A stretch of 64,000 bases of DNA from Rhodanobacteraceae bacterium (GTDB taxonomy: Bacteria; Pseudomonadota; Gammaproteobacteria; Xanthomonadales; Rhodanobacteraceae). The translations under genes were made by a program, and so were the position numbers. The DNA lies in the NCBI GenBank assembly GCA_016790075.1, contig JAEUPP010000061.1, positions 8,225-72,224 on the forward strand, read 5' to 3'. Position 1 is the stretch's first letter. Each line of letters opens with the position of its first letter. The notes beneath the pieces are model-generated. The model saw nothing but the letters and a program-made list of their open reading frames with translations, had not been told where the DNA came from and did no database searches. This document shows positions 27,727 to 62,699 of this stretch, piece after piece.

Positions 27727-30474
27727 ATGCCGACTCTGGTGCTGATCGATGGGTCCAGCTATCTCTATCGCGCGTTTCATGCGTTGCCGCCGTTGAGCAA
27801 CGCAGCCGGTGAACCTACCGGTGCGCTGTTCGGCGTCGTCAATATGCTGCGTACGACACTCAAGGCCAAACCCGACTACGCCGCTTTCGTCTGCGATGCG
27901 TCGGGCCCGACATTTCGCGACGAGCTCTATCCCGCCTACAAGGCAAATCGACCGCCGATGCCCGACGAACTGCGTGCGCAGATCGAGCCCATGCTGGAGA
28001 TCGTCAGGGCACTGGGTTTTCCTATCCTGCGGGAAACCGGAGTCGAAGCCGACGATGTCATCGGTACGCTAGCGATTCAGGCCGCAGCACTCGGCATCGA
28101 GGTCATCGTCTCCACGGGCGACAAGGACATGGCCCAACTGGTCGGTCCGCACGTGACCCTGAGCAATACGATGACGAACACGACGCTCAACCCCGCCGGT
28201 GTATACGAAAAATTCGGCGTGCATCCAGCGCAGATCGTCGATTTTCTTGCGCTGATGGGGGATAGCGTCGACAACATTCCGGGAGTGGAGAAATGCGGAC
28301 CGAAAACCGCAGCGAAATGGCTGGCGGAATATCAGACGCTGGACAATCTGATGCAGAACGCCGGCAAGGTCAGCGGCAAGATCGGTGAAAACTTGCGTGC
28401 TGCGCTGCCGCAGCTACCGTTGTCGCGCCTGCTGGCGACCATCAAGACCGACGTCGCGCTGGCGCAAGGTCCTGCACAGCTGGCGCTGCGCGAGCGCGAT
28501 ACGGAAACACTGCGCGCGTTGTATACGCGTTACGGCTTCAATGCGGCACTCAAGGATCTGGACGGCGGCAGCGCGCTGGCGAGCGAAGAGCTGCGTGGCG
28601 CGAATGTACCTGCGCAGTTCCGCAAGCCGCCAGGCACTGACGCGTTGCTGGATCCGGCCCTGTCTGCGCCTGGCCAATACGACTGCATCACCGACATGCA
28701 GCAGTTCCAGCATTGGCTGCAGCGCCTGGAGCTGGCAGATATCGTCTCGTTCGATACGGAGACGACTTCGCTCGATCCGCTGCAGGCCGAAATCGTCGGT
28801 CTGTCGTTCGCCGTGCGGAGCGGCGAAGCAGCCTATGTGCCACTGAGGCACAACTACCCGGGCGCACCGACGCAACTCGACCGGGATACCGTACTCGGCG
28901 CCATGAAGCCGCTGCTTGAGGACGAGAACAAGCCCAAACTCGGCCAGCATGCCAAATACGACATCAACGTGCTGTCGCGCTACGGCATCACCGTGCGCGG
29001 CGTGAAGTTCGATTCCATGCTGGAGTCCTATGTCTGGAACTCGACAGCGACGCGCCACGACATGGACTCGCTCGCAAAACGGTATCTCGGCTACACGCCA
29101 ATTCCGTACGAGAACGTAGCCGGAAAGGGGGCCAAGCAGATTCCGTTCGGCCAGGTCGCGCTCGAACAGGCGACGAACTACGCGGCCGAAGACGCTGACG
29201 TTACCTTGCGCCTGCACCAGGTGCTCTGGAGCAAACTCGGCACCGAACCCAAGCTGCGTGAAGTTTATGAAGCGATAGAAGCACCACTGATTCCGGTACT
29301 TGCACGCATGGAACAGCGCGGCGTGCTTGTCGACATCCAGGCGCTGCGCCGGCAGAGCAACGAGCTTGCCAAACGCATGCACGAAATCCAGCAGCATGCC
29401 TACACCATCGCCGGACGCAGTTTCAGCCTCGACTCGCCCAAGCAACTGCAGGCCATCCTGTTCGACGAGCTGAAATTGCCTATTGTGGTGAAGACGCCGA
29501 CCGGGCAACCGTCGACCAACGAAGAGGCACTCGACGCCATTGCCGACCAGCACGAGCTGCCACGCCTGATCCTCGATTACCGCGGCCTGGCCAAGCTGCG
29601 CTCGACCTATACCGACAAGCTCGCCGACAACGTCAACCCGAATACCGGCCGCGTGCACACGAGTTACGGCCAGGCGATTGCCGCCACCGGGCGCTTGTCT
29701 TCGTCGGACCCCAACCTGCAGAACATCCCTATCCGCACCGAAGAGGGCCGACGCATCCGCCAGGCCTTTGTTGCACCGCCGGGATTTCGCATCCTCGCGG
29801 CCGACTACTCACAGATCGAACTGCGCATCATGGCGCACCTGTCGGGCGACGCAGGCCTGCTAAGCGCCTTCGTCAGCGGCCAGGACGTGCATCGCGCGAC
29901 CGCGGCCGAGGTTTTCGGCCTGCCTCCCGATCAGGTCGATGCCAACCAGCGCCGCGCCGCCAAGGCCATCAACTTCGGGCTGATGTATGGCATGGGTGCG
30001 TTCGGCCTGGCACGCCAGCTCGGCATTGCGCGCAACGAAGCCAACGACTACATCGCGCGGTATTTCGCGCGTTATCCCGGCGTGCGCCAGTTCATGGACG
30101 ATATCCGCGAACAGGCGCACCGGGACGGCTATGTCGAGACCGTGTTCGGACGGCGGCTTTATCTGGACGACATTCGCGCGCGCAATCCGAACCTGCGCGC
30201 AGGTGCCGAGCGTGCGGCGATCAACGCACCGATGCAGGGCACGGCCGCCGATATCATCAAGCGCGCGATGATCGCCGTCGACGCCTGGCTCGGAGACCGC
30301 ACGGACGCACGCATGTTGATGCAGGTGCATGACGAGCTGGTGCTGGAAGTGCGCGAGGAAGTAATAGACGAGGTCAGCACCGGCCTGCGCGGACGCATGA
30401 GCACCGCCGCGGAACTCGCCGTGCCGCTGGTCGTCGATATCGGCACCGGCGCGAACTGGGACGAAGCGCATTGA
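27727..30474 (+). CDS. polA: DNA polymerase I
   Basis: LIDGSSYLYRAFHA, DTETT, GRLSSSDPNLQNIP, ADYSQIELR, KAINFGLMYG, MQVHDELV. Confidence 0.99.
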   Translation: MPTLVLIDGSSYLYRAFHALPPLSNAAGEPTGALFGVVNMLRTTLKAKPDYAAFVCDASGPTFRDELYPAYKANRPPMPDELRAQIEPMLEIVRALGFPILRETGVEADDVIGTLAIQAAALGIEVIVSTGDKDMAQLVGPHVTLSNTMTNTTLNPAGVYEKFGVHPAQIVDFLALMGDSVDNIPGVEKCGPKTAAKWLAEYQTLDNLMQNAGKVSGKIGENLRAALPQLPLSRLLATIKTDVALAQGPAQLALRERDTETLRALYTRYGFNAALKDLDGGSALASEELRGANVPAQFRKPPGTDALLDPALSAPGQYDCITDMQQFQHWLQRLELADIVSFDTETTSLDPLQAEIVGLSFAVRSGEAAYVPLRHNYPGAPTQLDRDTVLGAMKPLLEDENKPKLGQHAKYDINVLSRYGITVRGVKFDSMLESYVWNSTATRHDMDSLAKRYLGYTPIPYENVAGKGAKQIPFGQVALEQATNYAAEDADVTLRLHQVLWSKLGTEPKLREVYEAIEAPLIPVLARMEQRGVLVDIQALRRQSNELAKRMHEIQQHAYTIAGRSFSLDSPKQLQAILFDELKLPIVVKTPTGQPSTNEEALDAIADQHELPRLILDYRGLAKLRSTYTDKLADNVNPNTGRVHTSYGQAIAATGRLSSSDPNLQNIPIRTEEGRRIRQAFVAPPGFRILAADYSQIELRIMAHLSGDAGLLSAFVSGQDVHRATAAEVFGLPPDQVDANQRRAAKAINFGLMYGMGAFGLARQLGIARNEANDYIARYFARYPGVRQFMDDIREQAHRDGYVETVFGRRLYLDDIRARNPNLRAGAERAAINAPMQGTAADIIKRAMIAVDAWLGDRTDARMLMQVHDELVLEVREEVIDEVSTGLRGRMSTAAELAVPLVVDIGTGANWDEAH

Positions 30475-30570: not shown

Positions 30571-30702
30571 ATCAGGTGCACGCAACGGCACCTGGTTCAT
30601 TCCCCTCCCTGGATGAGCCGCCGGAATCAGGTTCCTCCCCAGACCTGCTACCGTACCCCAGGCCCCGAAGGTCCTCCCCTGACCTTCGGGGCCTTTCTTT
30701 TT
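30571..30702 (+). ncRNA. Small RNA downstream of polA with three C-rich loops (sX13-like), copy 1
   Basis: Four hairpins; loops TCCCCTCCC, TCCTCCCC and CTCCCCT; last stem GGCCCCGAAGGTC/GACCTTCGGGGCC followed by a T-tract; position matches Xanthomonas sX13. Confidence 0.75.
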
Positions 30703-30860
30703 CGGGCTTGCGACAGCATTGCCCGGCTCCGCACGTGCCGCGGCCGGAAGGTTGGTTCGGACCGGCCCAAGCAGTGACGCTGACCGCGCTCCTGAGCTAT
30801 CGTCATCGCGCCCCGGCGCAGTCCGGTCCAGCGCGGAACCCGACACCCAGAGGAAGTGCC

Positions 30861-31139
30861 ATGCACGATGTCATCGAAGTTGACCTGGATCGGGTGCGGG
30901 CCATCATCACTGGACTCGAAGGTGATCGATTCTCAACCGCCGATGTCATTCGTGGATATTGCGGCGGTTTTTTTTCGAACGTGGCGACACCGGCCTACTA
31001 CTCGCTGAATGCGCAGTTTGGAAAGCTCCTGAGGCGCAACGCCGACTTCCTGCAGATAGCACACGATGAAGCGGATGTGCCGATTGCCGATGACCGCGAC
31101 CACAAGACCCGCTCATCATTCTGGCGGCGCAGAGCCTGA
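30861..31139 (+). CDS. Hypothetical protein (92 aa)
   Basis: AGAGGA RBS; MHDVIEVDLDRVRAIITGLEGDRFSTADVIRGY...NAQFGKLLRRN, helix-rich. Confidence 0.65.
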   Translation: MHDVIEVDLDRVRAIITGLEGDRFSTADVIRGYCGGFFSNVATPAYYSLNAQFGKLLRRNADFLQIAHDEADVPIADDRDHKTRSSFWRRRA

Positions 31140-31229
31140 CCCCGGGCTCGCCGCGGCAGCCTCCAGGCTGCCTCGTGCTGCCCGGACCTGTGCGTCAGAC
31201 TGCGGCTGCACACGTCAATAGGTTGCACC

Positions 31230-31784
31230 ATGCCATTCACCGGCACTCTTGACAGCTGGAACGACGACCGGGGCTTCGGCTTCATTGCTCCGGCGCATGG
31301 TGGCGTTCGAGTATTTGTCCACATCAGCGAATTTCCACGGAGCAGCACTCGCCCCCTCGTCGGAGAAAGGCTTGGCTACGAACTTGGACGCAGCGAGGAC
31401 GGAAGGCCGCGTGCCGTAAGGATTGTCCGCCTGACCGTCGACACGAAACGGCCCGTTAGCGCCTCTGTCACCAGATCGAAGAGAACCGGGCTCCCATGGC
31501 CGGGGATTCTTGTAGCCTTGATGCTCTTGGTCGCCCCCGGCCTCTTGATCTACGAGCACCTTGCTTCATTCTGGCGTCGCCAGTCACTTGCCGCCGAACC
31601 CGCCCCACTGGCCAGCCAGCGCATTCCCGCCCCACCTGCCGCGACATTTCAATGCGATGGAAGAACCCACTGCTCGCAGATGGCGTCCTGCGCGGAGGCA
31701 ACCTGGTTCATCAACAACTGCCCAGGCACCGCGATGGACGGTGATGGCGACGGTGTTCCCTGCGAGCGGCAGTGGTGCGAATAG
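31230..31784 (+). CDS. Cold-shock domain - TM - Excalibur calcium-binding domain protein
   Basis: WNDDRGFGFI...VFVHIS (RNP1/RNP2); TM ILVALMLLVAPGLL; CSQMASCAEA...MDGDGDGVPCE. Confidence 0.88.
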   Translation: MPFTGTLDSWNDDRGFGFIAPAHGGVRVFVHISEFPRSSTRPLVGERLGYELGRSEDGRPRAVRIVRLTVDTKRPVSASVTRSKRTGLPWPGILVALMLLVAPGLLIYEHLASFWRRQSLAAEPAPLASQRIPAPPAATFQCDGRTHCSQMASCAEATWFINNCPGTAMDGDGDGVPCERQWCE

Positions 31785-31804
31785 CCTGGGCGCCAGCGCC
31801 CAGG
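31785..31804. terminator. Hairpin after the CSD-Excalibur gene
   Basis: CCTGGGCGC-ca-GCGCCCAGG; no clear T-tract. Confidence 0.4.
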
Positions 31805-31977
31805 ACCGGTCCGATGGACCATCTTGCCCACCAGTCCCGGAAGCGGCACCAGGCGACGGGGCGGCGGTTGAAATTCCTCCCAGTCGAGGCGGCGCGAAAT
31901 GGCCCGGACGACCCGAAGGGGATGGCCCATCGCATGAAACGCGTCCTGGTCAAATTTGCAGGAAACCTCCAGCGAGG

Positions 31978-33567
31978 TCAGGGAGCCTGAAATCCGTTGG
32001 CGAACAATGCGTCCTGTATTGCCGCATACCAGCCGTCCGGCAGACGGATACGGAAAACATCTCCACGGCCATCGGTAAACCCCCAGTTTCCCGTGGTCCA
32101 GATGTTATGGCCCTGAAAATCCAGCGCCCCTGACCCCTCGGAGCGATAGTCGTAGTAGCGGTTGTAGGTCGAGCCCAACCGTATGATGGATGCGGGACTG
32201 CCCGACGCATCGCGAATCTGGACCAGCAGCCCCTGGTTTTTTCCCCAATGGCTGAAGCTCGTGTCGTAGCTGTTCATGTACAGCCAGCCGCGCTTTGCCC
32301 GATCGTAAACTTTTCCAAAATGCAAACCTATCGACCACGAACCACCATCAAGATCCGCATACGAAATCACCTTCGTACCGCAGGCATAGGAGTTTCCACT
32401 GATAACCTGGCACTGAGCAGTAGCTGCCGAGCGGATATCCACTGCCTCGATCCAATCGTTGCGGTTGTTCTGCGATACAAATAGCTCCTCGCCCGACATC
32501 CCCCAAGCCCATCCGGAATGCGTCTCGTCGGCAGCAATTCTGATCGGATCTGAAAACCCGGGGAGCAATGCCTTGGGCCCGTCGGCGATGGTTCCCAGGT
32601 CCGCATCCCGTTGACCGGGATACACACGGCCATAATGCAGGATCACGCGCGTGCCCAGAGGCGACATTTCGACCATATTCGGTCGCGACAGGTACGGCAG
32701 TGGTGCAGCCGGCGTGTTTGCTTCCACGCAAGGTGCCGGTGTACCGCTGCAGGACCGCTGCAGGCGCCCGGTAATCTGGTTGTTCACCCGGTCATACGTA
32801 ACTATCGCGTAGGGTTTGTAGCCGGAGCTGAGACTGGTATTCATCACCTGCCAGGCCCAGTACCGCGAATCGTTGCTCGAGTCACCTTCAACATCGTTCA
32901 TGATCTGCGCATCGGCAAACCCGGGGAAATCGGCACTGAAATCCCGTATCACGGTTGGGGCTGACTGGGCGCCGCTGACTGGATCAATGTCGACGTAGTA
33001 GAACGTCATGCCTGGATTTTCAGTGCCGACACGTTGCGAAGCAGGAAGCGAGCGGCCGACAAAATAGAGCCGGTATGGGTGTGCGCCGGAATAATCCCAG
33101 CGCAGCTCGTTGATCTCCCCCAGTGCGCGGGAAGCCTGCCCCAGCGATGGCTTGAAGCGCAGCACCGTCAGCATCGCGTTGTTGGATACGCGATAAATCC
33201 AGGCGCTGGTCGAATTTTCTCCATGCACGACAGCCAACTCGCCGGTCGTGTTGGTCGGCGTGAACCGGGAGTACACAATCAGCGACATGCCGCTCTGGGC
33301 AGAACCGTAGTCACCGGTCAGTTCGCTCTTGTCGGCGACACGCACGACCTGAAATCCTGTAACGGGATCGATCGTGACGCTTCCCTTGCCGGGATAAGTT
33401 CCCGGACTCGGTATCGGAATGACACGCCGATCGGTGATGAACTCCGTGGCTTGTGTCGATTCATACCAGCGCACTGGCCGCGCGTGTTGGTCGGCAAAAG
33501 CGGCCGCAGCAGCCAGCGTAGTGAAAATCCCTGCAGCAACCTGGCGCAACATGCATTTGTCGATCAT
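31978..33567 (-). CDS. Secreted beta-propeller-like protein with C-terminal DALFANGFQ motif
   Basis: Signal peptide ...TTLAAAAAFA; DPVTG..VVRVAD and YSRFTPTNTTG segments reminiscent of TolB/oligogalacturonate-lyase-like propellers (inference). Confidence 0.75.
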   Translation of the reverse strand: MIDKCMLRQVAAGIFTTLAAAAAFADQHARPVRWYESTQATEFITDRRVIPIPSPGTYPGKGSVTIDPVTGFQVVRVADKSELTGDYGSAQSGMSLIVYSRFTPTNTTGELAVVHGENSTSAWIYRVSNNAMLTVLRFKPSLGQASRALGEINELRWDYSGAHPYRLYFVGRSLPASQRVGTENPGMTFYYVDIDPVSGAQSAPTVIRDFSADFPGFADAQIMNDVEGDSSNDSRYWAWQVMNTSLSSGYKPYAIVTYDRVNNQITGRLQRSCSGTPAPCVEANTPAAPLPYLSRPNMVEMSPLGTRVILHYGRVYPGQRDADLGTIADGPKALLPGFSDPIRIAADETHSGWAWGMSGEELFVSQNNRNDWIEAVDIRSAATAQCQVISGNSYACGTKVISYADLDGGSWSIGLHFGKVYDRAKRGWLYMNSYDTSFSHWGKNQGLLVQIRDASGSPASIIRLGSTYNRYYDYRSEGSGALDFQGHNIWTTGNWGFTDGRGDVFRIRLPDGWYAAIQDALFANGFQAP

Positions 33568-34444: not shown

Positions 34445-34729
34445 GAGTCTTTAGATCTATCGCGCAGTGAATGCGGCGCTGATTTCGTACGAGGCTTGAG
34501 GGGCACGCACAGGACACAGCGCGACTCGATCGAGGAGATATCCTCGACATGGCGCTGCTCGTTGCAGTGCCATGGACCGGCGTTGCGGGCGCATGCTAGT
34601 TTGCACCGCGAATTTCCTGAACACGGGTAGATAACGGCGCGGTAACGGATGGATAACGCCGCGCAGAGCCGCGCTCTCCTGATCCGTGAACCGGCGTGCG
34701 GCTGCGCTGGCACCGCGCTACTAGCGCGT

Positions 34730-37450
34730 ATGAAAACTGATATCGATTCAGCCGAGCGGCATTCCTATAGCTATCGTTTCGGCAGCGCCGAATTCGACGA
34801 GGCGCGGTTTGAACTGCGCGTAGCCGGCCTGCCGGTTGATGTGGAGCGGCGCGCGCTCGAAGTGCTGGCCTATCTGCTGCGCCATGCCGGCGAGGTGGTA
34901 ACCAAGGAAGAACTGCTGCGCGAGGTCTGGGCCGGCCGCATTACGGTCGACAAGGTACTGCCCAACGCGATCAACAAGCTGCGCCGCGCCCTGGGCGAGG
35001 CCAATGCCGAACGCGTGCAGACCCAGGCGCGCATCGGCTACCGCCTCGACGGCACGATAGAACGTGTCGCCGTGGGGCGGCGGCTAGCCAGCCGGCTTGA
35101 GCTGGCGGCCGGCCAGTCCGTGCCGGCGCGCGATAATTTTCTGTTGCGGCGCCAGCTCGGCAGCAGCCGCGACAACGAGGTCTGGCTGGCCGAGCATGCC
35201 AAGACGCGCGAGAAGCGCGTCTACAAGTTCGGCGTTGATGGCGAGAGGCTACGTTCACTCAAGCGCGAGGCCACCTTGTCGCGCGTGCTGCAGGAAAGCC
35301 TCGACGACCGCCGGCATTTCGTCGACATCATCGACTGGAACTTCGAGAGTTCCCCGTTCTTTCTGGAATGCCAATACGGCGGAGAGAGCCTGCTGGAGTG
35401 GGCCGAACAGCACCTGGCCGCGTTGGGGATCGATGAACGCCTCGTGGTGTTTCTGCAGATCGCCGATGCGGTGGCAGCCGCACATAGCGTCGGCGTGCTG
35501 CACAAGGATCTCAAGCCCGCCAATGTACTGATCGCTGCGACGGAATCGGGCTGGCTGATACGCCTGACCGATTTTGGCAGCGGCCGCCTGCTCGATCCGG
35601 AGCGACTCGAAGCGCTGGGCATTACCCAGCTCGGCCTCACCGTTACGCAGAGCATCGCAACCGATTCGTCGACAGGCACGCCGCTCTATGTGGCGCCTGA
35701 GGTGTTCGCCGGCCATGCGCCGACGGTGCAGAGCGACGTTTTTGCGCTGGGAATATTGCTGTATCAGCTGTTGGCGGGCCGCCTCAACAAGCCTATGGCA
35801 TCGGGCTGGGAGCAGGACATCGCCGACGAACTGCTGCGCGAAGATGTCCGTCTGGCCACCGATGGCAATCCCGAGCGGCGGCTGGCGACTGCGGCGGAAC
35901 TCGCTCTGCGCCTGCGTGACCGTGAACGCCGCCGCCTGCAGATCGATGCGGCACGGCGCGACGAAGAGCAAGCGCGCAGCGCACGTGAAACCCTGGCGCG
36001 CAGCCGCGCGCGCCGGCCGTATCTGGTCGCGCTGATCACTGCCCTGGCCGTCAGCATCGCGGTAGTGCTCGTCCTGTACCGCACCGCAGTGAACGCGCGC
36101 AACACGGCACAACAGGAGCTCGACCGCGCTGCGGCGATCAATCGTTTTCTCAACGAAGACCTGATCGGACGCTCCAACCCGCTGGTCGTCGCCAAGGGAC
36201 AGAGCGCATCGATCAGGGATGTACTGCTTGCGGCGCGCGACCGCGTAGCGCAGCGCTTCAGCGCGCAGCCGCTGACCGAAGCAACGATCCGCACCAGTCT
36301 GACCACGCTGTTCAACATGATTGAACTGCTGCCTGAAGCAGAGGGCGAGGCGCGCCGCGCGCTTGCGCTATACGAAAGCCACGCCGGCGCGGCGAGCCGC
36401 GATGCGCTGAAAGCGCGTTCGCTGCTTGCGCGCCTGCTCACACGCACGGGCAAGATCGAAGAAGCACACAAGGAATTGCAGCGGCTGGATGAACTGACCG
36501 CAGCGATGGACGACCCGTATACGAAGTATTTGCGTGCCCATGCCTGGGGCATCTACTACATGAACCGGGGCGAGTACGCCAAGGGCGTGCCCGAATACCG
36601 CATTGCCATCCCCATATTGCGCGAAGCAGAGCCAGACAACGTCACCTTGCGCGATTCCATGCGCATGGATCTGATCGGAGGGCTGACCCAGGTAGGCGAT
36701 CTGGCTGGAGCGCGCGCCGAAGGTGCCGATCTGATTCGCGAAATCGGCACACGCGGAGACGACAACGGCCTGGTTGTCGCATTCGCAAAAGCGATGGTGG
36801 CGCGCACATATACCCTGGAGGGCGATCTTGCTACTGCCGAGTCGCAGCTTGTCGAGGCGCAGCAGACCATAGTCAACGTGCTCGGTGCCGCTCACACGCG
36901 CAATATCATGGTGCTCAGCGATCTTTTCGACATCGCTGTGCGCCGCGCCGACTGGCCCAGGGCACTAGCTTATGCCCAGCAAGTGCATGAGGGCGCGCTG
37001 GCCAAATTTGGGCCCGAGCACAATATCACTGCAGCAACGGCGATCAATTGGGGACAGGCACTGTTCGAGAGCGGCGATACAAAAACCGCAGAAGACAAGC
37101 TGCGACCATTCCGCGAGTTGCTCGCCGCCAAGCTTGGCCCAGAAAATCCACAAAGCCAGGTTGCCACCTATTGGCTTTGCGCCTTTGCGCTGGAGCAGCG
37201 CAAGGCGGACGAGGCCGCACGGCTTGTTGCGCTGCTGGATCCGGCGGCACTGGAAGGCGCCGGCGCCGATGGATTCTGGAAGCTGCGCGTCGACATGCTG
37301 CGTGGGTTGCTCGCGGCACAGCGCGGTGACGAGGCCGTGGCGGCAGAACTCCTCGCCTCAGCCGTGGATGGGCTGGCCAAGGCCGACGGAGGCCGCAGTC
37401 GCCTCTATGCCAATGCCCAACGCGCGCTGGGCCGTAGCCCCACGCCATGA
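34730..37450 (+). CDS. Winged-helix DNA-binding domain - Hanks-type Ser/Thr kinase - TM - TPR protein
   Basis: YRFGSAEFDE...KEELLREVW...INKLRRALG (OmpR-type wHTH); LHKDLKPANVLI, DFGSG, GTPLYVAPE, SDVFALG; TM helix; helical repeats. Confidence 0.9.
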   Translation: MKTDIDSAERHSYSYRFGSAEFDEARFELRVAGLPVDVERRALEVLAYLLRHAGEVVTKEELLREVWAGRITVDKVLPNAINKLRRALGEANAERVQTQARIGYRLDGTIERVAVGRRLASRLELAAGQSVPARDNFLLRRQLGSSRDNEVWLAEHAKTREKRVYKFGVDGERLRSLKREATLSRVLQESLDDRRHFVDIIDWNFESSPFFLECQYGGESLLEWAEQHLAALGIDERLVVFLQIADAVAAAHSVGVLHKDLKPANVLIAATESGWLIRLTDFGSGRLLDPERLEALGITQLGLTVTQSIATDSSTGTPLYVAPEVFAGHAPTVQSDVFALGILLYQLLAGRLNKPMASGWEQDIADELLREDVRLATDGNPERRLATAAELALRLRDRERRRLQIDAARRDEEQARSARETLARSRARRPYLVALITALAVSIAVVLVLYRTAVNARNTAQQELDRAAAINRFLNEDLIGRSNPLVVAKGQSASIRDVLLAARDRVAQRFSAQPLTEATIRTSLTTLFNMIELLPEAEGEARRALALYESHAGAASRDALKARSLLARLLTRTGKIEEAHKELQRLDELTAAMDDPYTKYLRAHAWGIYYMNRGEYAKGVPEYRIAIPILREAEPDNVTLRDSMRMDLIGGLTQVGDLAGARAEGADLIREIGTRGDDNGLVVAFAKAMVARTYTLEGDLATAESQLVEAQQTIVNVLGAAHTRNIMVLSDLFDIAVRRADWPRALAYAQQVHEGALAKFGPEHNITAATAINWGQALFESGDTKTAEDKLRPFRELLAAKLGPENPQSQVATYWLCAFALEQRKADEAARLVALLDPAALEGAGADGFWKLRVDMLRGLLAAQRGDEAVAAELLASAVDGLAKADGGRSRLYANAQRALGRSPTP

Positions 37451-48317: not shown

Positions 48318-51300
48318 ATGGCCTCGTATTTCGCCGTGCGCCGTAGTGCCGGCTTCAGGCTGGCGGGTTTGATCGTAGCGGGAATGCTCGCCCTCGTATC
48401 GCAACCCGCTGGCGCTGTTGAACAGGGCGGAAAAACTTCAGCTAATACGGAAGCCTGCGCGCTAGCGCTGCTGCAGGCTGCGGAAACACCGACTTTCACG
48501 GTTCCCCCAGACGCGTGCCAAACACTGGTATCGCGAACTAACTGGCAAAAAAAGCCGATAGCCGGCAGCGCGGAATGCAGCACGGGCAACCTCGCGGGCT
48601 GCCTTGAGGCGGCTTTCGATATCGATTCGCCGCGCGAGATCCTTGGTTTTGTGCGGCAGCATTGTTCAGCACTTGTAGAAAACGCTTGGCAACCGCGTTA
48701 TGGCGGCCCGGAGGCCAGCGAGCCTGCGCTGCAGACCTGCCGGCAAGCTCTCAAGCTGCTGGAGCGGCGCGACATTAAAAGCAAATTCGACGGCCGCGCC
48801 GAGCAACGCCGTAGCCGGCTCGTCGGCGAGTGCCTGCTGCCGCTTGAGAACTGCCGCGACCCCGCGACCTGCCGTGACCTGCCGCTATGCGCCGCGGCGC
48901 TTTACGACCTGCCCTGCTCTGGCGAGGCCTGCACACGCTGGTTTGAACGCGACCGGCTAACCGCCGAACGCCAACGCGAGCTTGGGATTCGAGCGGTTAT
49001 GGAACAAATCGAGGACCGTGACCAGCGTAGAACAGAAGTGAAAAAGACCCTGCGCCAACAGGACATAGTTGCCGAAGACGCACGCGATAACGACCAGAAC
49101 ATTGCCTATAAAGCAAGAGCCAGCAACAGCGAGATTGCCGCCGCAGCACGCGCCAACGATCAGGAGATCGCATACGAGGCAAGAATCAGCGACTCGGTAA
49201 TTGCTCAACACGGCCGCGATACCGCAGACCGGATTGCGCGTGAATCACTCGACATGCAGCGCGAAATCGCACAGGGCAACCACGATGCAGCTGGAAAGTT
49301 TTCCACACAAATGAAAGAAAGCCTTGGCGATCTCGCGAGCGCCATTGAAAAGCTGAGTGGCGAAGAGCCATCCAAGACCGAATCCCCGGTTCGCCAGATC
49401 GACCCCAACCAGCCCATAGAAGACCTGTTCCCCGAGGCTGACTCAATCAGCTACGCAATCGCAACCCTGCCCCACCCCGCCGTGCCACGCCACCGGCGCA
49501 GCTACTACGCGGCGACGGATAGCCTCGACAGCGGCATGCATGCCAACGGCTATAACTTTGTCACGTACTACGACCCCTGGACCGAATATCGCGATGCCAA
49601 GAACGACAGCGCACCGGATAGCTGGCAACTCGGCAACTTTGCCAACGATGCCAGCTATGGCATCCGTATCTATCGGCATGAAGGCTGGCGCTGTACCGAT
49701 TCCGAGGAGCCCTGCGACAAAGCCACACGCCTGCGCGTACTGTTTATTGTCGGCGAGACACAGACCTATGGCGTACAGCGCAAGGCGCTGGATGCGGCGT
49801 TATGGCGCTCAGTCGCAGAAGTGCATCGTGAACACGATAGCAATTCCCCCTTGACCATGCTCCTTGAGCGACATGTCGACAAAGACCGCTTCAATGCATC
49901 CGAACTAATTAGGTCCCTTGCGATCGAGGTGTTTCGCGCGGTTACAGACGCGCCGTGTTATGTCTCACCGCGTCGTGCATACCAGCCGTGCCCAACGGTG
50001 CGAATCAATCGTGAGGTATTGGTCCTGGGGCCAACTTTCTCAGGTTCTGTCGATGGACTTTCCCAAGCAGCCAGCACCATTAACGAGCAACTCCAGAAGC
50101 GCATCCTGATACCGCTGAAACTCGTCGCCGAACTCAAGTCGCTGCGCCACGCGCTGGACGACGAAGAAGCGCGCAAGCGCCGGTATTCGATAGCTACCGA
50201 CAGTACGAGCACCACAGACGGCGATCTGACTACCGCGCTGGCCAAGCTTCGGCGCTGCCTCGATGCGCTGGAGCTCCGCTCTACCGATCGCACGGGAAAG
50301 GCATTGATCGCGAATGCGTGCAAATCAGAGAAAGTGAACAAAGCACACGAGGAGAGCAAAGAGAAGGAAGACCACGCGGAGAACTTCTGTCAAGCGCAGA
50401 TAGAAAACACGAATTGTTCCTCCGACCCCGATAAACAGCCCCAGCCGGTCACCATAGACCGCGTCTTTCAGCTGTACGAGCGCGCCTCACAACTCGCGAA
50501 CAAGCTCGGATACGCCGCCATCCTGACTCCGAAAGTCCAGGTCTCGATTCATGCGATCAGCGCAACAGCCACAGCGACTTCCAATAGCAAGATCAACTCC
50601 ACCAATCCCGAGCGCTTCACGCAACAGACGCTGGCCATCAGCGACGAAAGGAAACTCTGCAGCGTTCTTAAAAACATGCAGAAAGTTTACGGGTCAGTAA
50701 CCCACGTCGCCTTGCTGCACGAACCAACGGCGTTCGGCCGCGATGCCTACTTGACGCTACGTCGGCTCGCCAAAGTGTCAAATGAAAAAGAGGAATCCGC
50801 AGGCGCGCAATGCAAACTGCCGTTCACGATTTCTGAAGACAATGTCATCGGCCTCGATTTCCCACCAAATATCTCGGATTTGCGCCAGAAACTGCGCGAC
50901 AGCGACAAGCAGGCGCGCACAGAACTCGATCTGACTGACCTCACGACCAGCGACTCGCATCTGCCCATCGACGAGGGGGTCGAAAACGGCAACGAGTATC
51001 CGAACGGTGCCGGCTCCAAACTCGCCGCGGTCGCCGCTGACCAGCGGCTGCGCCTGCAGCTGGACAAACTCGCCAGTTTCAAGCCTGACCTCATCATTGT
51101 CGTGGCGAGTGATGTACGCGATCGGCTGTATCTGTTTGACCGCTTGTCGCGCACGGCCTCGGATGCTGCCCTGGTGGATCTCGAAGCCGATCTATTGCTG
51201 GGCCATCCCGACTATCTGCATGCGACGCGCGGCATCCGCATGGTGTCGTCAAGCGCACTGTACTCAAGCGCACCGGACCCAGGTGCGCTGAACAGCCAAC

Positions 51301-52445
51301 TGTCCTTGCACTGCACCGAGCAGCCGACAGCAGGTTATCTGCGCCAGTTCGACAGCGATCGCTCAGCACTGCTGCATGAACTCGTACGCTGCAACGGCGT
51401 TCTGTTCAGCGCAACACAGCCTCTGCTTTACCGCATTGGCAAGCACGGGCCTGTGCCGGACCTGCACGGAGCGGAAGCAATCTGGGCCAAAGCAACTTGG
51501 AACTTTCATGGCGGGCTTGCGAGTGGCGCTGCACTTGCGGCTGGCCTGCTCGCGTTTGCCTATTGCCTGGTGCAACTGGTCCAGTCGACCCGCGAGACCC
51601 GCACGACGCAGTTGCCGGGAGCCACACGGGTACTCATGGCCGCCCCCTGGTGGAATTCTCCGATGCTACGGCTGCGCGACGCTCGACGCTTGACCGCGTT
51701 GGTCGCCGTCGGCGTAGTGATCGGCCTGCTCATCATTCCCTCCAGCGAACTACTGTCCACCCAGCCGGGTTTCCGAGCACTGCTGCAACTCACCCTGCTC
51801 GCTGCACTGGCGCAAATACTCTGGTATGTCATCACGCGCCGGCTGCGCGACTGGATGCGCCATATCGAGCTGGCTATTCGTGCAAGCGGCGCAAAAGAGC
51901 TGGTCGACTGGGCGGAACTGCCCGGCCCCAAACCCAACTTCGTCGCTACCCCGGTGCTGGCGGGCAGCTACTGGTTCGTACTCAAGCCCGATATGGCTGC
52001 TGAGCTCTTTCGCAGTCAGCTCACCGCACTCGAATTCGGATTTCAGGATTCGCTGACGCTGCGTCTCGCACTGCGCCAGCTATTGCTGCCTGGGCTGCGC
52101 GCCGTATTCCGCCTGGCCTGCGTAAGCTTTGTGGCCTGCCTCGCTGTCGTGCTGGTCACCCTGTTCTACCCGGTACCACACCGCTCGGTGCCTCTCGTCG
52201 GCGCCTTCCTGCTGCTGCTATCCGGCACCTGGCTGGCCACGGCTCACACCATCGCGTTCGAGCGCAGCGGTCTACTGAGCCGGCTCTACTGCGGCACCGA
52301 GGCCGGACTGAAGATTTCCACGCAACTTATTGCAACGATTGCCGGCCCTCTGACCCTGCTGATCCTCTCGCTGATCCTCGCCGACCAGCCCGGCGTCATG
52401 GATACCGCAGGCGGCCTGCTGAAGTGGCTGGCTACTCTCAAGTAA
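48318..52445 (+). CDS. Large uncharacterised membrane protein (1375 aa)
   Basis: Signal peptide, Cys-rich N-terminus, 11-residue repeats, alpha/beta region (VLFIVGETQTYG, VLGPTFSGS, IIVVASDVRD), about six C-terminal hydrophobic helices. Confidence 0.8.
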   Translation: MASYFAVRRSAGFRLAGLIVAGMLALVSQPAGAVEQGGKTSANTEACALALLQAAETPTFTVPPDACQTLVSRTNWQKKPIAGSAECSTGNLAGCLEAAFDIDSPREILGFVRQHCSALVENAWQPRYGGPEASEPALQTCRQALKLLERRDIKSKFDGRAEQRRSRLVGECLLPLENCRDPATCRDLPLCAAALYDLPCSGEACTRWFERDRLTAERQRELGIRAVMEQIEDRDQRRTEVKKTLRQQDIVAEDARDNDQNIAYKARASNSEIAAAARANDQEIAYEARISDSVIAQHGRDTADRIARESLDMQREIAQGNHDAAGKFSTQMKESLGDLASAIEKLSGEEPSKTESPVRQIDPNQPIEDLFPEADSISYAIATLPHPAVPRHRRSYYAATDSLDSGMHANGYNFVTYYDPWTEYRDAKNDSAPDSWQLGNFANDASYGIRIYRHEGWRCTDSEEPCDKATRLRVLFIVGETQTYGVQRKALDAALWRSVAEVHREHDSNSPLTMLLERHVDKDRFNASELIRSLAIEVFRAVTDAPCYVSPRRAYQPCPTVRINREVLVLGPTFSGSVDGLSQAASTINEQLQKRILIPLKLVAELKSLRHALDDEEARKRRYSIATDSTSTTDGDLTTALAKLRRCLDALELRSTDRTGKALIANACKSEKVNKAHEESKEKEDHAENFCQAQIENTNCSSDPDKQPQPVTIDRVFQLYERASQLANKLGYAAILTPKVQVSIHAISATATATSNSKINSTNPERFTQQTLAISDERKLCSVLKNMQKVYGSVTHVALLHEPTAFGRDAYLTLRRLAKVSNEKEESAGAQCKLPFTISEDNVIGLDFPPNISDLRQKLRDSDKQARTELDLTDLTTSDSHLPIDEGVENGNEYPNGAGSKLAAVAADQRLRLQLDKLASFKPDLIIVVASDVRDRLYLFDRLSRTASDAALVDLEADLLLGHPDYLHATRGIRMVSSSALYSSAPDPGALNSQLSLHCTEQPTAGYLRQFDSDRSALLHELVRCNGVLFSATQPLLYRIGKHGPVPDLHGAEAIWAKATWNFHGGLASGAALAAGLLAFAYCLVQLVQSTRETRTTQLPGATRVLMAAPWWNSPMLRLRDARRLTALVAVGVVIGLLIIPSSELLSTQPGFRALLQLTLLAALAQILWYVITRRLRDWMRHIELAIRASGAKELVDWAELPGPKPNFVATPVLAGSYWFVLKPDMAAELFRSQLTALEFGFQDSLTLRLALRQLLLPGLRAVFRLACVSFVACLAVVLVTLFYPVPHRSVPLVGAFLLLLSGTWLATAHTIAFERSGLLSRLYCGTEAGLKISTQLIATIAGPLTLLILSLILADQPGVMDTAGGLLKWLATLK

Positions 52446-56368: not shown

Positions 56369-56966
56369 GGCCGCAGCCTGCGGCAAGGACTGCCCCTCCG
56401 CTGAAACGGTAAAGCGCATCGAGCAGCTCAGGCGGCCGCTGCCGGCGACGACGGGTTATACCGAGGTGCGATTCGTGCAGATGCTTGATGCGCCGCTGAT
56501 CCTGCGAGGCGAGCTGTCCTATTCCAGCGCAAACGAACTTGGCAAGCGCGTGGTCTCGCCGTATCAGGAGACCACGACTATCGCCAACGGCCAGGTCGAG
56601 ATCACCCGCCCCGGCAAGCCGGTCAAGCGCTTCAGTCTCAAGCGCGCGCCGGCACTGGTGGGCTTTCTCGAAAGCTTCAGCGCAACCCTCGCCGGCGACG
56701 CACAACGTCTCGCACGCAGCTATGCGCTCAGCAGCGAAGGCAACGACCTGCAGTGGCAGTTGCAGCTGGTACCGCGTGATGCGGCGCTGGCCAAGCACGT
56801 CAAGCGTGTCGTCATCAGCGGACAGGAAGCAGTACCGCAGTGTTTCGAGATCGAGGAAAGCGGAGGTGACAGCAGTCTGCTGCTGGTCGATGCACTCGCG
56901 GACACACCGCTGCCGGCGGCACCGCAGCGCGATGCGCTGCAGCAGCTTTGCCACCGCACGCTGTGA
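56304..56966 (+). CDS. LolA-related lipoprotein carrier
   Basis: Signal peptide; YTEVRFVQMLDAPLILRGEL, WQLQLVPRD; cluster position. Confidence 0.8.
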   Translation: MISGTVIALSLLLPLASRAAPEAAACGKDCPSAETVKRIEQLRRPLPATTGYTEVRFVQMLDAPLILRGELSYSSANELGKRVVSPYQETTTIANGQVEITRPGKPVKRFSLKRAPALVGFLESFSATLAGDAQRLARSYALSSEGNDLQWQLQLVPRDAALAKHVKRVVISGQEAVPQCFEIEESGGDSSLLLVDALADTPLPAAPQRDALQQLCHRTL

Positions 56967-59296
56967 GCCCGCGCACGCGTTTGGCCCTGCTGCTAGGCTG
57001 GCTCGCGCTGCTAGCGGGTCTGCTCGCTTATGTGCTTGGCACCCTGCGGGTCAGCACCGACCTGCGCAGCTTCATGCCGCCGGCGCGCACGCCCGAGCAG
57101 CGTCTGTTGCTCGACGAAATCGGCGAAGGTCCTGGCTCACGCCTGCTGCTGCTGGCGCTGGACGGTGAAGAGCCGGACGTCCTTGCGGATCTCAGCAAGG
57201 CGCTGGTGCAGAAGATTCGCGCCGATCAGCGTTTCGTTCGTGCCCTGAATGGCGAAGGCGATCTGGGCGCGCTGGCTGAGGACTTGTTGCCCTATCGCTA
57301 TCTGCTGTCGACGACGCTCGACAGCCAGCGTCTCGATACCGCGACCTTGCGCGACGAGCTGCAGCAGCGTGTGCAGGATCTTGGCTCTCCCGCTGCTGCC
57401 TGGCTGAAACCCCTTCTGGCCAGCGATCCCACGCTGGAAACACTTAAGCTCGCGCAGGCCTGGGCGCCGCCGGGCGAACCCGAGCGCTACGCCGATGTCT
57501 GGTTCACCCGCGACGGCGAGACAGCGCTGCTGCTTGCCGAAACCGTGGCCGGCGGCTTCGACCCCGCTGCACAGCGCGCCGCACAGGAAGCCTTGAGCTC
57601 CTATTTCCACGAAGCAGCAAAAGAAACTAACGCAAAAATCACACTGAGCGGACCCGGTGTATTCACCGTGCGAATCAACGCGACAACCAGCGACGAGGCC
57701 AGCCGCATAGGCCTGTTTGATTCGATCGGTTTTGTTGCCTTGCTGCTGCTCGCCTATCGCCGCGTTACCACGGTGCTCGCGGGTGCATTGCCGCTGCTCA
57801 GTGGCGGCCTGGCCGGCATGGCTGCGCTGGCGCTGCTGTTCGGCGGCGCACATGGCATCACCCTGGCATTCGGCTTCACCTTGATCGGTGTTGCACAGGA
57901 CTATCCCATCCACCTGTTCAGTCATCTGCGCCGCGAGCGCACACCGGTCGCGGTCGCCGGTCTGCTCTGGCCTACGCTTGCGACCGGTGTGGCATCGACC
58001 TGTATCGCTTATCTCGCGTTCTTTGCTTCCGGTGTGGACGGTCTTGAGCAACTGGCCGTGTTCACGATAGTCGGGCTTGCAACAGCCGCACTGACCACGC
58101 GTTTCGGCCTGGCCCATCTGCTGGGCAGCCAGCCGCACGATGCGGCACAGTCGGCCTGGCTCGCGGCGCTGTGGCGCTGGCTCGCCAAACTGCCGCGCCC
58201 ACGCTGGCTGGCACCACTGCTGGCCATGACAGCCATCGGCGCCATGATCTGGGCTCCGGGTGCATTCTGGGAAAACAACCTGGCCGCGCTGACACCCGCG
58301 CCGGCCGATCTGGTCGCGCAAGATACGCGGCTGCGCGCCGAGCTGGGCGCGCCCGATGTGCGCTATCTGCTCGTAATCGAGGCCAGCACGGCCGACGCCG
58401 TGCTCGCGGCCAGCGAAAAACTCGAACCCAGGCTCGTGCAGTTGCAGCGCGACGGCGCGATTGGCGGCTATGAGCTGCCGTCACGCTATCTGCCCAGCGC
58501 TGCGACACAGCGCCTGCGCCAGAGCCAGCTTCCCGATGCCGCGACCTTGCGCAACGCACTCGCCAGCGCGCAGCAAGGGCTACCGTTCAAACCTGGCAGC
58601 TTCGATTCATTCCTGCGCGACGTCGATGCCGCACGTGGACTGCCGCCGCTGAGTGCCGAGCGCTATTTTGCCTCGCCCCTGGGCCTGCGCCTGAGAGCCC
58701 AGCTGCAGGCCCGTGATGGTCACTGGATAGGACTGGTCAATCTGTCTGGCGTCGCCGATCGCGAGGCCCTGGTCAGGTTTGCCGCAGCGCCCGACACGAC
58801 GGCGCGCCTGCTGGACCTCAAACATGCCTCGGAATCACTGGTCGCGGCCTATCGTACACGCGTGCTGTATTCACTCGCGGTCGCCTCCGTGCTGCTGGTC
58901 GCGGTCGTGAGCATGGCGCTGCGCCGGCGCAGCCGCGTGCTGCGCGTACTGCTGCCGATGGCAGTGACCACACTGCTGATACTCGCCGTGCTGCGTCTTT
59001 GCGGCGTGTCGCTGTCGCTGTTTCACCTGATCGCACTGGTGCTCGCCGCCGGACTGGGCCTGGACTACGCACTGTTTTTCGAGCACGTCGAAGACGACGA
59101 ACAGGAACAGCGCCTCACCTTGCACGCCATACTTGTCTGCAGCGCCAGCACCTTTTTCGTGTTCTTGCTGCTGGCGTTGTCATCACTGCCAGTACTGCGC
59201 GCAATCGGCACGACCGTAACCCTCGGAGTTGCCTTCAACTTCGTGCTTGCGCTGCTGTTCACACGCCCGCGCCAGGAGATCGTTGGTGCTCGATAA
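56963..59296 (+). CDS. MMPL/RND-family lipid exporter
   Basis: ITLAFGFTLIGVAQDYPIH and LAAGLGLDYALF, two membrane repeats; GTGA coupling to the upstream gene. Confidence 0.9.
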   Translation: MSPRTRLALLLGWLALLAGLLAYVLGTLRVSTDLRSFMPPARTPEQRLLLDEIGEGPGSRLLLLALDGEEPDVLADLSKALVQKIRADQRFVRALNGEGDLGALAEDLLPYRYLLSTTLDSQRLDTATLRDELQQRVQDLGSPAAAWLKPLLASDPTLETLKLAQAWAPPGEPERYADVWFTRDGETALLLAETVAGGFDPAAQRAAQEALSSYFHEAAKETNAKITLSGPGVFTVRINATTSDEASRIGLFDSIGFVALLLLAYRRVTTVLAGALPLLSGGLAGMAALALLFGGAHGITLAFGFTLIGVAQDYPIHLFSHLRRERTPVAVAGLLWPTLATGVASTCIAYLAFFASGVDGLEQLAVFTIVGLATAALTTRFGLAHLLGSQPHDAAQSAWLAALWRWLAKLPRPRWLAPLLAMTAIGAMIWAPGAFWENNLAALTPAPADLVAQDTRLRAELGAPDVRYLLVIEASTADAVLAASEKLEPRLVQLQRDGAIGGYELPSRYLPSAATQRLRQSQLPDAATLRNALASAQQGLPFKPGSFDSFLRDVDAARGLPPLSAERYFASPLGLRLRAQLQARDGHWIGLVNLSGVADREALVRFAAAPDTTARLLDLKHASESLVAAYRTRVLYSLAVASVLLVAVVSMALRRRSRVLRVLLPMAVTTLLILAVLRLCGVSLSLFHLIALVLAAGLGLDYALFFEHVEDDEQEQRLTLHAILVCSASTFFVFLLLALSSLPVLRAIGTTVTLGVAFNFVLALLFTRPRQEIVGAR

Positions 59297-59726: not shown

Positions 59727-59837
59727 TGGCGCTTTCGCAGCGGCATCCATTCTTGTTGCACGACCGTAGCAGCGAACAGCGGAACGCAAGCGCCTCGCAG
59801 GCAGCACCTATCCGGAACTTCCCATGACTTCAAAACC

Positions 59838-61212: not shown

Positions 61213-62490
61213 TCACGGGAGTTCGAACGAGTTCTGGAACAACCTGTCCACTCGCGCGAGCTTGAGATCCTGATTGGCAAAATCGTAGTAGCTCAGCACC
61301 AGTTGCCCGGACGCATCCTGTTGCAGAGACGTGTGCTGACCCACATCGCTGGCGCTGTCAAGAACATCGATCTCCCAGCTCGGAGAAGCACTCCCACAGC
61401 GGGCAGTGCAGGTAGCCAGTTTCAGATCTCCGCCAGTCGTGCTGTAGTAACTCACGACCGGCTGATTGTTCGCATTCAACTGCAACGACGTAAACCAGCC
61501 CACCGTGCCCGCACTGTCGGCTACTACGATTTGCCAGACAGGGCTGGCGCTGTTGCAGCCAGCACTGCAGGTAGCGACTTTGAGAACTCGATTGGTGTGG
61601 TCGTAATAACTGATCACCGGCTGGCCGGTAGAACCCAGCTGCAGCGAGGTATACCAGCCAGCGGTACCCGCGCTGTCGACAGTGACGATCAACCAGACCG
61701 GACTCGCGCCTGCGCAGTTGGCGGTGCAGGAAGCCAACTTCAGATCGCCGTTGGTTCTGTCGAAGTAGCTGACAACCGGCTGGCCGCTCGCATTGAGTTG
61801 CAGGGACGTGTACCAGCCAACATCGTCAGCGCTGTCGATCGTGACCACTTGCCAGGTCGGATTCGGACCGGTGCAATTGGCGGTGCAGGTAGCGAGCTTG
61901 AGATCACCGTTGGTTCGGTCGTAGTAGCTCACTACCGGCCGGTTGTCCGCATGGAGCTGCAGCGAGGAATGCTGTCCGACTGCTGCGGAACCATCGACTG
62001 AAACGATCTGCCAGACAGGATTGGGGCTCGTACAGGCCGACTTGCAGGTCGCCAGTTTGAGATCGCTGTTGGTCGCATCGTAATAGCTCACTACGGGGCG
62101 ACCGCTGGTGTCCAATTGCAAGGAAGTGTATTCCCCGACAGCGCCCAAACTGTCCACGGTGACGATCTGCCAGGTTGGGCTGGCGGTGTTGCAATTCGCG
62201 GTGCAGCTAGCCAGCCTGAGGTTAATCTCGCTACTGTAGAAGTAGCTGATTACCGGCTGCCCGCTCCCATTCAATTGCAATGAGCTGTACTGCCCGACAC
62301 TGCCGGTGCTGTCGACCGTAACCATCTGGGCATCGGCCAACTTGCCGCCCGCGAGGGCGGCGAACGCCACCATACCGACGCACCAACGGCCAGCCCAGGC
62401 TGAACATCTGTTGCGACGATTGGTCTGTAGGCCTGCAACAGGCTCGTCGGGCCTCGGCAGCCTAAATCCAGCTCCGTTTTTCCTTCCCAT
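61213..62490 (-). CDS. Secreted seven-repeat (53 aa) beta-propeller-like protein ending DRLFQNSFELP
   Basis: Seven copies of WQIVTVDSxGxVGxYTSLQLxxxGxPVVSYYDxTNxDLKLAxCxAxC; start could also be 62373. Confidence 0.85.
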   Translation of the reverse strand: MGRKNGAGFRLPRPDEPVAGLQTNRRNRCSAWAGRWCVGMVAFAALAGGKLADAQMVTVDSTGSVGQYSSLQLNGSGQPVISYFYSSEINLRLASCTANCNTASPTWQIVTVDSLGAVGEYTSLQLDTSGRPVVSYYDATNSDLKLATCKSACTSPNPVWQIVSVDGSAAVGQHSSLQLHADNRPVVSYYDRTNGDLKLATCTANCTGPNPTWQVVTIDSADDVGWYTSLQLNASGQPVVSYFDRTNGDLKLASCTANCAGASPVWLIVTVDSAGTAGWYTSLQLGSTGQPVISYYDHTNRVLKVATCSAGCNSASPVWQIVVADSAGTVGWFTSLQLNANNQPVVSYYSTTGGDLKLATCTARCGSASPSWEIDVLDSASDVGQHTSLQQDASGQLVLSYYDFANQDLKLARVDRLFQNSFELP

Positions 62491-62699
62491 TGCAACGTTT
62501 CTCCGTAGCGCAAAGCGAGGCAATCTGGAGCGGGCATCTGACTGCTCGTCTGCCTTTCCGGAATGCCGATGGCCTGAAGCAGCCGCGGATCTTAACCAAT
62601 GGCAAAGCTGACGGACATCGTCGCTGCGCCGTGGCGAGGACTGAACACTTCGCCGGAACGGCACATCCACGCACCGCCGCGGAGCGCCTCAGCTGTTTG

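Follow-up and report, generated by a model that had tools for sequence, protein, structure and literature searches.

The window analysed here, a stretch of 64,000 nucleotides from contig JAEUPP010000061.1 of a Rhodanobacteraceae bacterium, encodes two exported proteins that end in the same type of short peptide. An earlier note made from the letters of the window had pointed to this shared D-x-L-F-x-N-x-F-(E/Q) tail on unrelated secreted proteins and had proposed an undescribed C-terminal sorting or secretion signal. The two carrier proteins and their tails, with lengths in amino acids (aa), are the following.

31978..33567, minus strand: carrier 1, an exported protein of 529 aa with a signal peptide at residues 1-25 and a beta-propeller-like fold.
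31981..32013, minus strand: tail 1, the codons for DALFANGFQAP, with the stop codon TGA at 31978-31980.
61213..62490, minus strand: carrier 2, an exported repeat protein of 425 aa counted from ATG 62490, with seven ~53-aa repeats.
61216..61248, minus strand: tail 2, the codons for DRLFQNSFELP, with the stop codon TGA at 61213-61215.

Both ends are confirmed. Directly before their stop codons, carrier 1 reads ...WYAAIQDALFANGFQAP and carrier 2 reads ...LKLARVDRLFQNSFELP (longer stretches, ...LPDGWYAAIQDALFANGFQAP and ...DLKLARVDRLFQNSFELP; the tail peptide is also written out as PDRIFADGFETP), and the form common to the two is D-x-L-F-x-N-x-F-[EQ]-x-P-stop. The interval 31978-32030 given by the earlier note covers the stop codon and the last 16-17 codons of carrier 1. 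Six-frame translation of the window yields exactly two copies of the relaxed motif [ILVM]F..[GSNA]F[EQD], both of which are preceded by D-x, followed by x-P and placed two residues ahead of a stop. At the DNA level, the pattern GAYNNNHTSTTCNNNRACNNNTTYSARNNNCCNTRR, a degenerate code for D-x-[ILMF]-F-x-[DN]-x-F-[EQ]-x-P-stop, matches the window twice, at the two tails, against 0.00 matches expected from 100 dinucleotide-preserving shuffles.

The description of the carriers as mutually unrelated proteins with signal-like N-termini and no transmembrane (TM) anchor holds as well. The signal peptide of carrier 1 is classical (MIDKCMLRQVAAGIFTTLAAAAAFA, followed by DQ) and that of carrier 2 is plausible when read from ATG 62490 (...WCVGMVAFAALAGGKLADA, followed by Q). 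The open reading frame (ORF) of carrier 2 covers 61213..62670 on the minus strand, with ATG 62490, which has a GGAGA box before it, as the likely start; the source gene call places the start at ATG 62373 and gives 386 aa. In both carriers the sole hydrophobic segment is the N-terminal one, and their last 19 residues average 0.04 and -0.50 on the Kyte-Doolittle hydropathy scale. Sequence similarity between the two is not significant (best BLASTP E = 3.1), and AlphaFold2 models both as beta-propellers, with a predicted local distance difference test score (pLDDT) of 92 for carrier 1 and 94 for carrier 2; the best match of the carrier 1 model in the PDB is the oligogalacturonate lyase 3c5m. The full-length carriers match no family in Pfam or NCBIfam, and a look-up of the exact sequence of carrier 1 gave no record.

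Comparison with homologues indicates that the tail is appended to each protein. All 119 homologues retrieved for carrier 1 lack a tail; they end at ...LPxxWYxxLP(K), and tail 1 starts beyond that point. Tail 2 is attached directly to the last blade strand (...DLKLAR), and homologues of carrier 2 end at ...DLKLAR (e.g. P0140) or ...DLKVA, or have other C-terminal modules. The tail itself is absent from all of the carrier 2 homologues listed; several have an IPTL-CTERM-like anchor in its place, for example ...AAIPTLSEWSLLMTAFLLVALGGAAMRRRR, and P0204 is the only one listed with a related, longer tail (GIFSDGFESGSTAAWIP). In the model of carrier 2 the fold is complete by residue 375, the tail declining in pLDDT from 81 to 47, and in that of carrier 1 the last residues, with a pLDDT of ~69, form a moderate-confidence helix continuation. 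As modelled, both tails lie outside the propeller fold, and the alignments present the tail as an 11-12-residue add-on to folded domains.

The history of carrier 1 bears on the same point. Its nearest homologues are up to 74% identical and have no tail, and those with a named source are Burkholderiales. The closest homologues of the PolA encoded at 27727..30474 share 87-91% identity with it, and the named ones among these (87-90%) are Tahibacter species, an identity from which we take the window to come from Tahibacter. Carrier 1 is missing from the syntenic PolA-UvrD region of three other Tahibacter-type genomes or assemblies (L240, L241 and L242), as are two small genes upstream of it (window 30576-33567 against the three regions), one of which encodes a protein with CSD and Excalibur domains (31230-31784). 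Given its absence from these three regions and its tail-less closest relatives, carrier 1 would have been recently acquired and yet carries a tail; horizontal acquisition is likely.

A scan of the stop-containing pattern in one genome per species (185,579 species) places the two tails in a much larger set. At least 119 loci match, against ~13 expected at uniform base composition by our own calculation for the whole collection; locus counts from here on refer to the 119 loci listed. Lysobacterales/Xanthomonadales labels account for 91 of them (Dokdonella, Tahibacter, Rudaea, Chiayiivirga, Aquimonas, Pseudofulvimonas, Wenzhouxiangella(ceae), Rhodanobacteraceae and similar genera and lineages), unclassified Proteobacteria metagenome-assembled genomes (MAGs) for 20, high-GC contigs in MAGs labelled otherwise (e.g. 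'Saccharimonadia', 69.6% GC) for three, and evident noise, namely ORFs of 14-19 codons or TGG instead of a stop, for five. Similar tails on Dokdonella/Tahibacter-type proteins, which the earlier note had mentioned, are thereby borne out. Among the matches listed, none is labelled Xanthomonas, Stenotrophomonas or Lysobacter or comes from a cultured Rhodanobacter, and the absence from these groups is suggestive only. Viral contigs scanned with the pattern gave 0 matches.

Two observations concern the taxonomic range of the tail. Tailed contigs of 63-70% GC occur in MAGs labelled Saccharimonadia, Planctomycetales and Halomonas (L038, L045 and L008), and the tail of L045 matches that of the Xanthomonadales contig L041; the three contigs are probably binning contaminants. 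Separately, the gene for the S-layer/nanopod protein NpdA adjoins the gsp (type II secretion) cluster, and its Xanthomonadales orthologues are reported from Chiayiivirga, 'Rhodanobacter denitrificans', Rudaea, Tahibacter, Dokdonella and one Lysobacter (PMC10765051). This is nearly the same set of genera as that which carries the tail, a correlation only.

The consensus of the tail is (P/G/D)-D-x-[IL]-F-[AR]-[DN]-G-F-[EQ]-x-P-COOH. Even positions left free by the search pattern are constrained in the 115 tails compared from the genome-scan matches listed, with Gly at position -5 in 99/115 and Ala or Arg at position -7 in 73/115. The codons that specify these residues vary: Gly is encoded by GGC/GGT/GGG/GGA in 55/18/15/11 cases, Glu by GAG/GAA in 55/44 and Pro by four codons, and the stop is TGA/TAG/TAA in 71/25/19. 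Nucleotide information content is ~0.1 bit on both flanks. Because synonymous codons vary and the flanks are unconserved, selection acts on the peptide and not on the DNA, and an origin from a DNA repeat or mobile element is ruled out by the same two features.

The carriers are predominantly exported proteins of many kinds. A lenient heuristic finds a signal peptide in 70/84 complete carriers, and under a stricter rule the fraction is 61% in carriers against 21% in other ORFs of at least 250 aa from the same loci (odds ratio 5.6, p = 1e-11). The 86 carriers with Pfam matches fall into 55 families, among them S8/P-domain, M14 and M64 peptidases, LPMO_10, cadherin-like, Big, FG-GAP and beta-helix proteins, pyrroloquinoline quinone (PQQ)-type sugar dehydrogenases (GSDH) and delta-60/DUF5122 propellers; such families are typical of secreted or surface proteins. 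NCBIfam adds choice-of-anchor Q (7), J (2), O (1) and X (1), CSLREA_Nterm (4) and rhombotarget-A-like N-termini (3). Choice-of-anchor families are named for the alternative C-terminal anchors that they have in different lineages, and in L053 and L074 the choice-of-anchor Q domain stops 2-7 residues ahead of the tail. By its position on choice-of-anchor and rhombotarget-A-like proteins, the tail holds the slot that tripartite sorting signals occupy in other lineages. An assignment of carriers to rhombosortase- or myxosortase-dependent M36 peptidases was rejected, the match being confined to an internal MAM-like segment that scores 28-77 bits against cut-offs of 1500-1700.

The tail is a real and widespread module for which no prior description was found. 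Sixty tails of 36 residues, scanned at E <= 10 against NCBIfam (June 2026 release) and Pfam, matched no model for the tail, and literature searches found no description of it, in agreement with its characterisation as undescribed in the earlier note. In a local hidden Markov model (HMM) test, a tail on its own reaches at most 24 bits (E >= 5), and a tandem construct does less well. Since one peptide ends many different exported proteins and has no curated family, it is probably a new kind of protein-sorting tag.

The closest known counterparts are the C-terminal sorting signals surveyed by Haft, which are tripartite and consist of a motif, a TM helix and an Arg cluster (bioRxiv 10.1101/2023.06.07.544157). 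Like GlyGly-CTERM/rhombosortase, PEP-CTERM/exosortase, MYXO-CTERM/myxosortase, IPTL-CTERM and LPXTG/sortase signals, the tail is a lineage-restricted C-terminal signature on many unrelated exported proteins. It shares with them a short signature near the C-terminus of many proteins per genome, and it stands in the same place after choice-of-anchor Q domains and on rhombotarget-A-like proteins. In contrast to these signals, no hydrophobic TM segment follows the tail, the proteins stopping 0-8 residues past the motif, and the listed sequences have no Arg/Lys cluster after it, the 115 scan-selected tails having x-P only. Nor is the spacing of the tail to the end fixed; occasional copies are N-terminal or internal, and the tail matches no NCBIfam signal model. 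With neither a hydrophobic helix nor an Arg/Lys cluster, it should not be readable by the usual intramembrane sorting protease. In Tahibacter soli (L078) a 1581-aa ORF on the minus strand ends ...PVPTLGRLAMLLMLLGLVGLAWRRYATR, an IPTL-CTERM-like tripartite signal; this coexistence marks the tail as a separate system.

The position of the motif within proteins was assessed where no stop codon was required. In the flanks of the genome loci, 21 of the 28 copies of the strict motif are at most 11 residues away from a stop (with endings such as GFE, GFEx and GFExP) and 6/28 are internal or near the N-terminus; in one locus (L055) an ORF has two in tandem, 39-48 residues from its start. Scanning metagenomes for D-x-I-F-x-D-G-F-E gave 122 copies, 119 of them with a determinable distance to the stop. 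After the final Glu, 63/119 continue for 0-8 residues and 23/119 for 12-17 residues, the latter being a longer tail, and 33/119 are internal, several of these opening the mature protein directly after the signal peptide. The motif strongly favours the C-terminus but is not confined to it, and its distance from the carboxylate is variable. An x-P end is common in Lysobacterales, but the genome pattern required x-P, and in the stop-free metagenome scan the register is 0-8 residues after GFE. As such, the C-terminal signal envisaged by the earlier note stands as a conserved, peptide-level module with a C-terminal bias on exported carriers of many families, and does not stand with respect to fixed spacing or strict C-terminality. 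The varying spacing and the non-C-terminal copies suggest a short exposed recognition peptide that depends on neither a carboxylate nor a membrane anchor.

The longer tail, 21-23 aa, likewise lacks a TM segment and reads DxIFxDGFESGDTSAWSxTVP before the stop, with 12 residues after the Glu. It is found on 23 metagenome contigs of ~66% GC (L128, L143, L172, L174, L178, L183, L184, L200, L205, L209, L211, L230, L231, L234, L235 and others) and matches no NCBIfam model; the carrier 2 homologue P0204 ends in a similar way. About 11 of the internal metagenome copies open a C-terminal domain of ~200 aa, which starts DLIFADGFESGxLSAWSSS..GGDLSVS, ends with the similar strand LYFDxFESRRxxYIGP and gives weak, sub-threshold matches to the jelly-roll families Polysacc_lyase (PF14099) and CBM_4_9 (contigs L130, L154, L157, L168, L181, L189 with three proteins, L207, L222, L224 and L229). 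A composite case is the carrier of L015 (ending at 5076, minus strand), in which an internal copy, VIFADGFEG, is separated from the tail at the end first by a GGGGGG linker and then by a MAM-like domain, as though an older tail had been extended by a cassette made up of a domain and a new tail.

We propose, with a probability of about 0.5, that the tail serves as a lineage-specific tag by which Sec-exported proteins are sorted or retained. The tail would emerge as an exposed peptide directly from the last folded domain, with no membrane-spanning segment, and a receptor in the cell envelope would read it non-covalently as a short linear motif and then either steer the cargo through the outer membrane or keep it on the cell surface. 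It would in this way do the job of the GlyGly-CTERM, PEP-CTERM, MYXO-CTERM or IPTL-CTERM anchors that serve the same protein families elsewhere. From the sequences we infer the sorting role, the bound and not cleaved state of the tail and the destination of the cargo. Cleavage by an intramembrane protease is unlikely, since the tail has no helix by which the membrane could hold it and only 0-7 linker residues.

The most likely route for such a tag would be coupling to type II secretion, followed by retention at the surface or in the matrix. In Vibrio, the type II secretion-dependent surface localisation of VesB is governed by C-terminal information (PMC6219818), and the PDZ domain of the GspC-type protein EpsC reads graftable secretion information in VesB (PMC12369372), which makes a type II secretion link the most attractive concrete model. 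The tail carriers resemble this system in being Sec-exported folded cargo (proteases, LPMO/GbpA-like and adhesin-like proteins), and by analogy C-terminal information that may be graftable would choose between secretion and surface retention. However, the information in Vibrio is a folded Ig domain plus a tripartite anchor, whereas here it would be an 11-residue linear peptide. The specific form of the proposal, in which an outer-membrane translocation machine, be it type II secretion (e.g. a GspC-type PDZ/HR domain) or a dedicated receptor, would recognise the tail as a portable, linear signal for export or retention, is doubtful. Less likely is a variant by donor-strand complementation, in which the tail would complete a jelly-roll surface receptor that lacks its own first strand.

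Several observations count against a sorting tag. Clustering of neighbouring ORFs (>=150 aa and 70-150 aa) found no recurrent linked gene in the 119 loci except pairs of an extracytoplasmic function (ECF) sigma factor and a kinase, and gave no candidate for a cognate sorting enzyme. Internal or N-terminal positions account for about a quarter of the independent copies, so the motif would not need a free C-terminus. The restriction to one order rests on the matches listed, from at least 119 loci, and is suggestive only. A beta-hairpin at the [DN]-G turn, considered as a defined structure for the tail, was rejected, AlphaFold2 extending a helix in carrier 1 and giving the tail of carrier 2 low confidence. 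Finally, in other lineages the tail residues are the first strand of a jelly-roll domain, and a purely structural origin is for that reason possible.

The last observation is the basis of the first alternative, in which the tail is a structural leftover or a cap at a domain boundary, that is, the first strand of a jelly roll or a module terminator that persists as a remnant with no sorting role. The likeness to the concanavalin-like jelly rolls (CBM_4_9, PF02018; Polysacc_lyase, PF14099) is direct in that [IL]-F-x-[DN]-G-F-E(-S-G-x-x-x-x-W) opens the ~200-aa metagenomic domain with its weak PF14099/CBM_4_9 matches; an intermediate form of 21-23 aa exists, and internal copies precede Gly-rich linkers and further domains, as in L015. 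Yet the window and the Lysobacterales have 9-11 of these residues only, at the ends of proteins with other folds, and a complete beta-sandwich of ~130-210 aa follows the first strand only in other metagenomic contigs. Remnants would be expected to decay, whereas here the residues are conserved while their codons vary; tails are borne by 55 or more unrelated families, the 119 homologues of carrier 1 include none (0/119) with a C-terminal jelly roll to lose, and the short form is concentrated in one order among the matches listed. The AlphaFold2 models, in which the tails are not packed against the folds, suggest that they are not caps. We consider a leftover unlikely.

A second alternative arises from the neighbouring genes. 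Divergent from carrier 1 lies the following gene.

34649..37450, plus strand: a winged helix (Trans_reg_C), a Ser/Thr kinase, one TM helix and a TPR part.

Its link to the tail is tentative. Genes for an ECF sigma factor (PF07638) and for a Ser/Thr kinase-TM-TPR protein share the same 8-kb locus with a tail carrier in 14 of the 119 loci (L003, L052, L063, L072, L075, L077, L080, L083, L085, L087, L089, L097, L110 and L118), and in most of the 14 the pair directly adjoins the carrier; the kinase of the window is itself fused to the winged helix, where these loci pair a kinase with an ECF sigma factor. A single TM helix separates the kinase from the TPR part in each of the six kinases examined; with the kinase domain in the cytoplasm, the TPR part would be periplasmic. 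Short terminal peptides are classical ligands of TPR domains, as in Pex5-PTS1 and Hop-EEVD. The tail could on these grounds be a signalling ligand bound by the periplasmic TPR domains of kinases paired with an ECF sigma factor or a winged helix, through which exported tail proteins or their periplasmic build-up would be sensed and fed back to transcription. Such a neighbour is present at only ~12% of carriers, however, and kinases seem abundant in these genomes, one also lying in an unrelated Tahibacter locus, so that the adjacency may be partly chance. A scheme of many kinases and many carriers would also leave one invariant motif on ~55 families unexplained, and we hold a signalling ligand to be quite improbable.

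The peroxisomal targeting signal PTS1 and its Pex5 TPR reader serve equally as an analogy of mechanism only for the proposed sorting tag, with a short exposed terminal peptide on many unrelated cargos that would be read non-covalently by a repeat domain. PTS1 belongs to another kingdom and compartment, and it requires a free carboxylate at a fixed distance; the tail seems to need neither.

A third alternative holds that the tail marks its carriers for proteolysis or maturation, a periplasmic tail-specific or PDZ protease (Prc/CtpA/DegP type) or a processing peptidase setting their half-life or activation. PDZ proteases read C-terminal peptides, the tail is a short, exposed, aromatic-rich C-terminal peptide on proteins that pass through the periplasm, and many carriers are themselves proteases that may need controlled activation. 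Recognition of a C-terminus is a poor fit to the variable carboxylate distance and to the internal and N-terminal copies, and to our knowledge acidic, Pro-terminated ends are unlike the known ligands of Prc or DegS. The equivalence of slot with anchoring signals points instead to localisation, and a proteolysis tag seems to us a long shot. An artefact, either a chance match or a repeated DNA element such as a miniature inverted-repeat transposable element (MITE) or a terminator giving a shared frame end, is negligible, for although the relaxed 7-residue motif alone is expected ~2 times in 128,000 six-frame residues (an estimate), the full pattern with its stop is expected 0.00 times, the DNA is unconserved outside the constrained codon positions and there are >110 independent instances in related genomes.

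Other C-terminal signals of the Gram-negative envelope differ more clearly from the proposed tag. Like the beta-signal of outer-membrane proteins, read by the beta-barrel assembly machinery (BAM), the tail is an aromatic-containing C-terminal peptide, but the beta-signal has an aromatic last residue and belongs to beta-barrels, while the tail ends in Pro or a variable residue on soluble propellers, peptidases and adhesin-like proteins; the TonB-dependent receptor of the window ends ...ARFKF and is of the beta-signal type. The C-terminal domain of the type IX secretion system (T9SS) is a beta-sandwich of 70-100 aa in Bacteroidota, unlike the tail of 9-12 residues in Gammaproteobacteria. Substrates of type I secretion (RTX-type) are exported in one step with no N-terminal signal peptide, whereas the tail carriers have Sec-type signal peptides.

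C-terminal tags have repeatedly led to new envelope machinery, namely sortase, exosortase, rhombosortase, myxosortase and the T9SS. As the tail comes without the membrane anchor used by intramembrane sorting enzymes, its reader should be a different kind of component. The tag would mark a large share of the secreted and surface proteins in a whole clade of soil and wastewater bacteria, with tens to ~100 tagged proteins per genome by our rough estimate. How folded proteins are selected for passage through the outer membrane has been called poorly understood even now (PMC12369372). If the reader is type II secretion or a surface receptor, the tail would offer a transplantable handle on that selection or on retention, and an 11-residue peptide would suffice to export a folded periplasmic protein or to fix it at the surface. 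The motif could also improve secretome prediction for Lysobacterales and serve as a lineage marker that flags mis-binned MAG contigs, such as the 69.6% GC contig labelled Saccharimonadia.

Elsewhere in the window, a 1375-aa protein (48318-52445, plus strand) has a signal peptide, no Pfam family and no tail, and is the other large exported soluble candidate. At 56948-60569 on the plus strand, a 782-aa polytopic membrane protein, a 165-aa ORF and an SDR/FabG-like protein stand in a row, an arrangement that may resemble an aryl-polyene or xanthomonadin-type lipid cluster.

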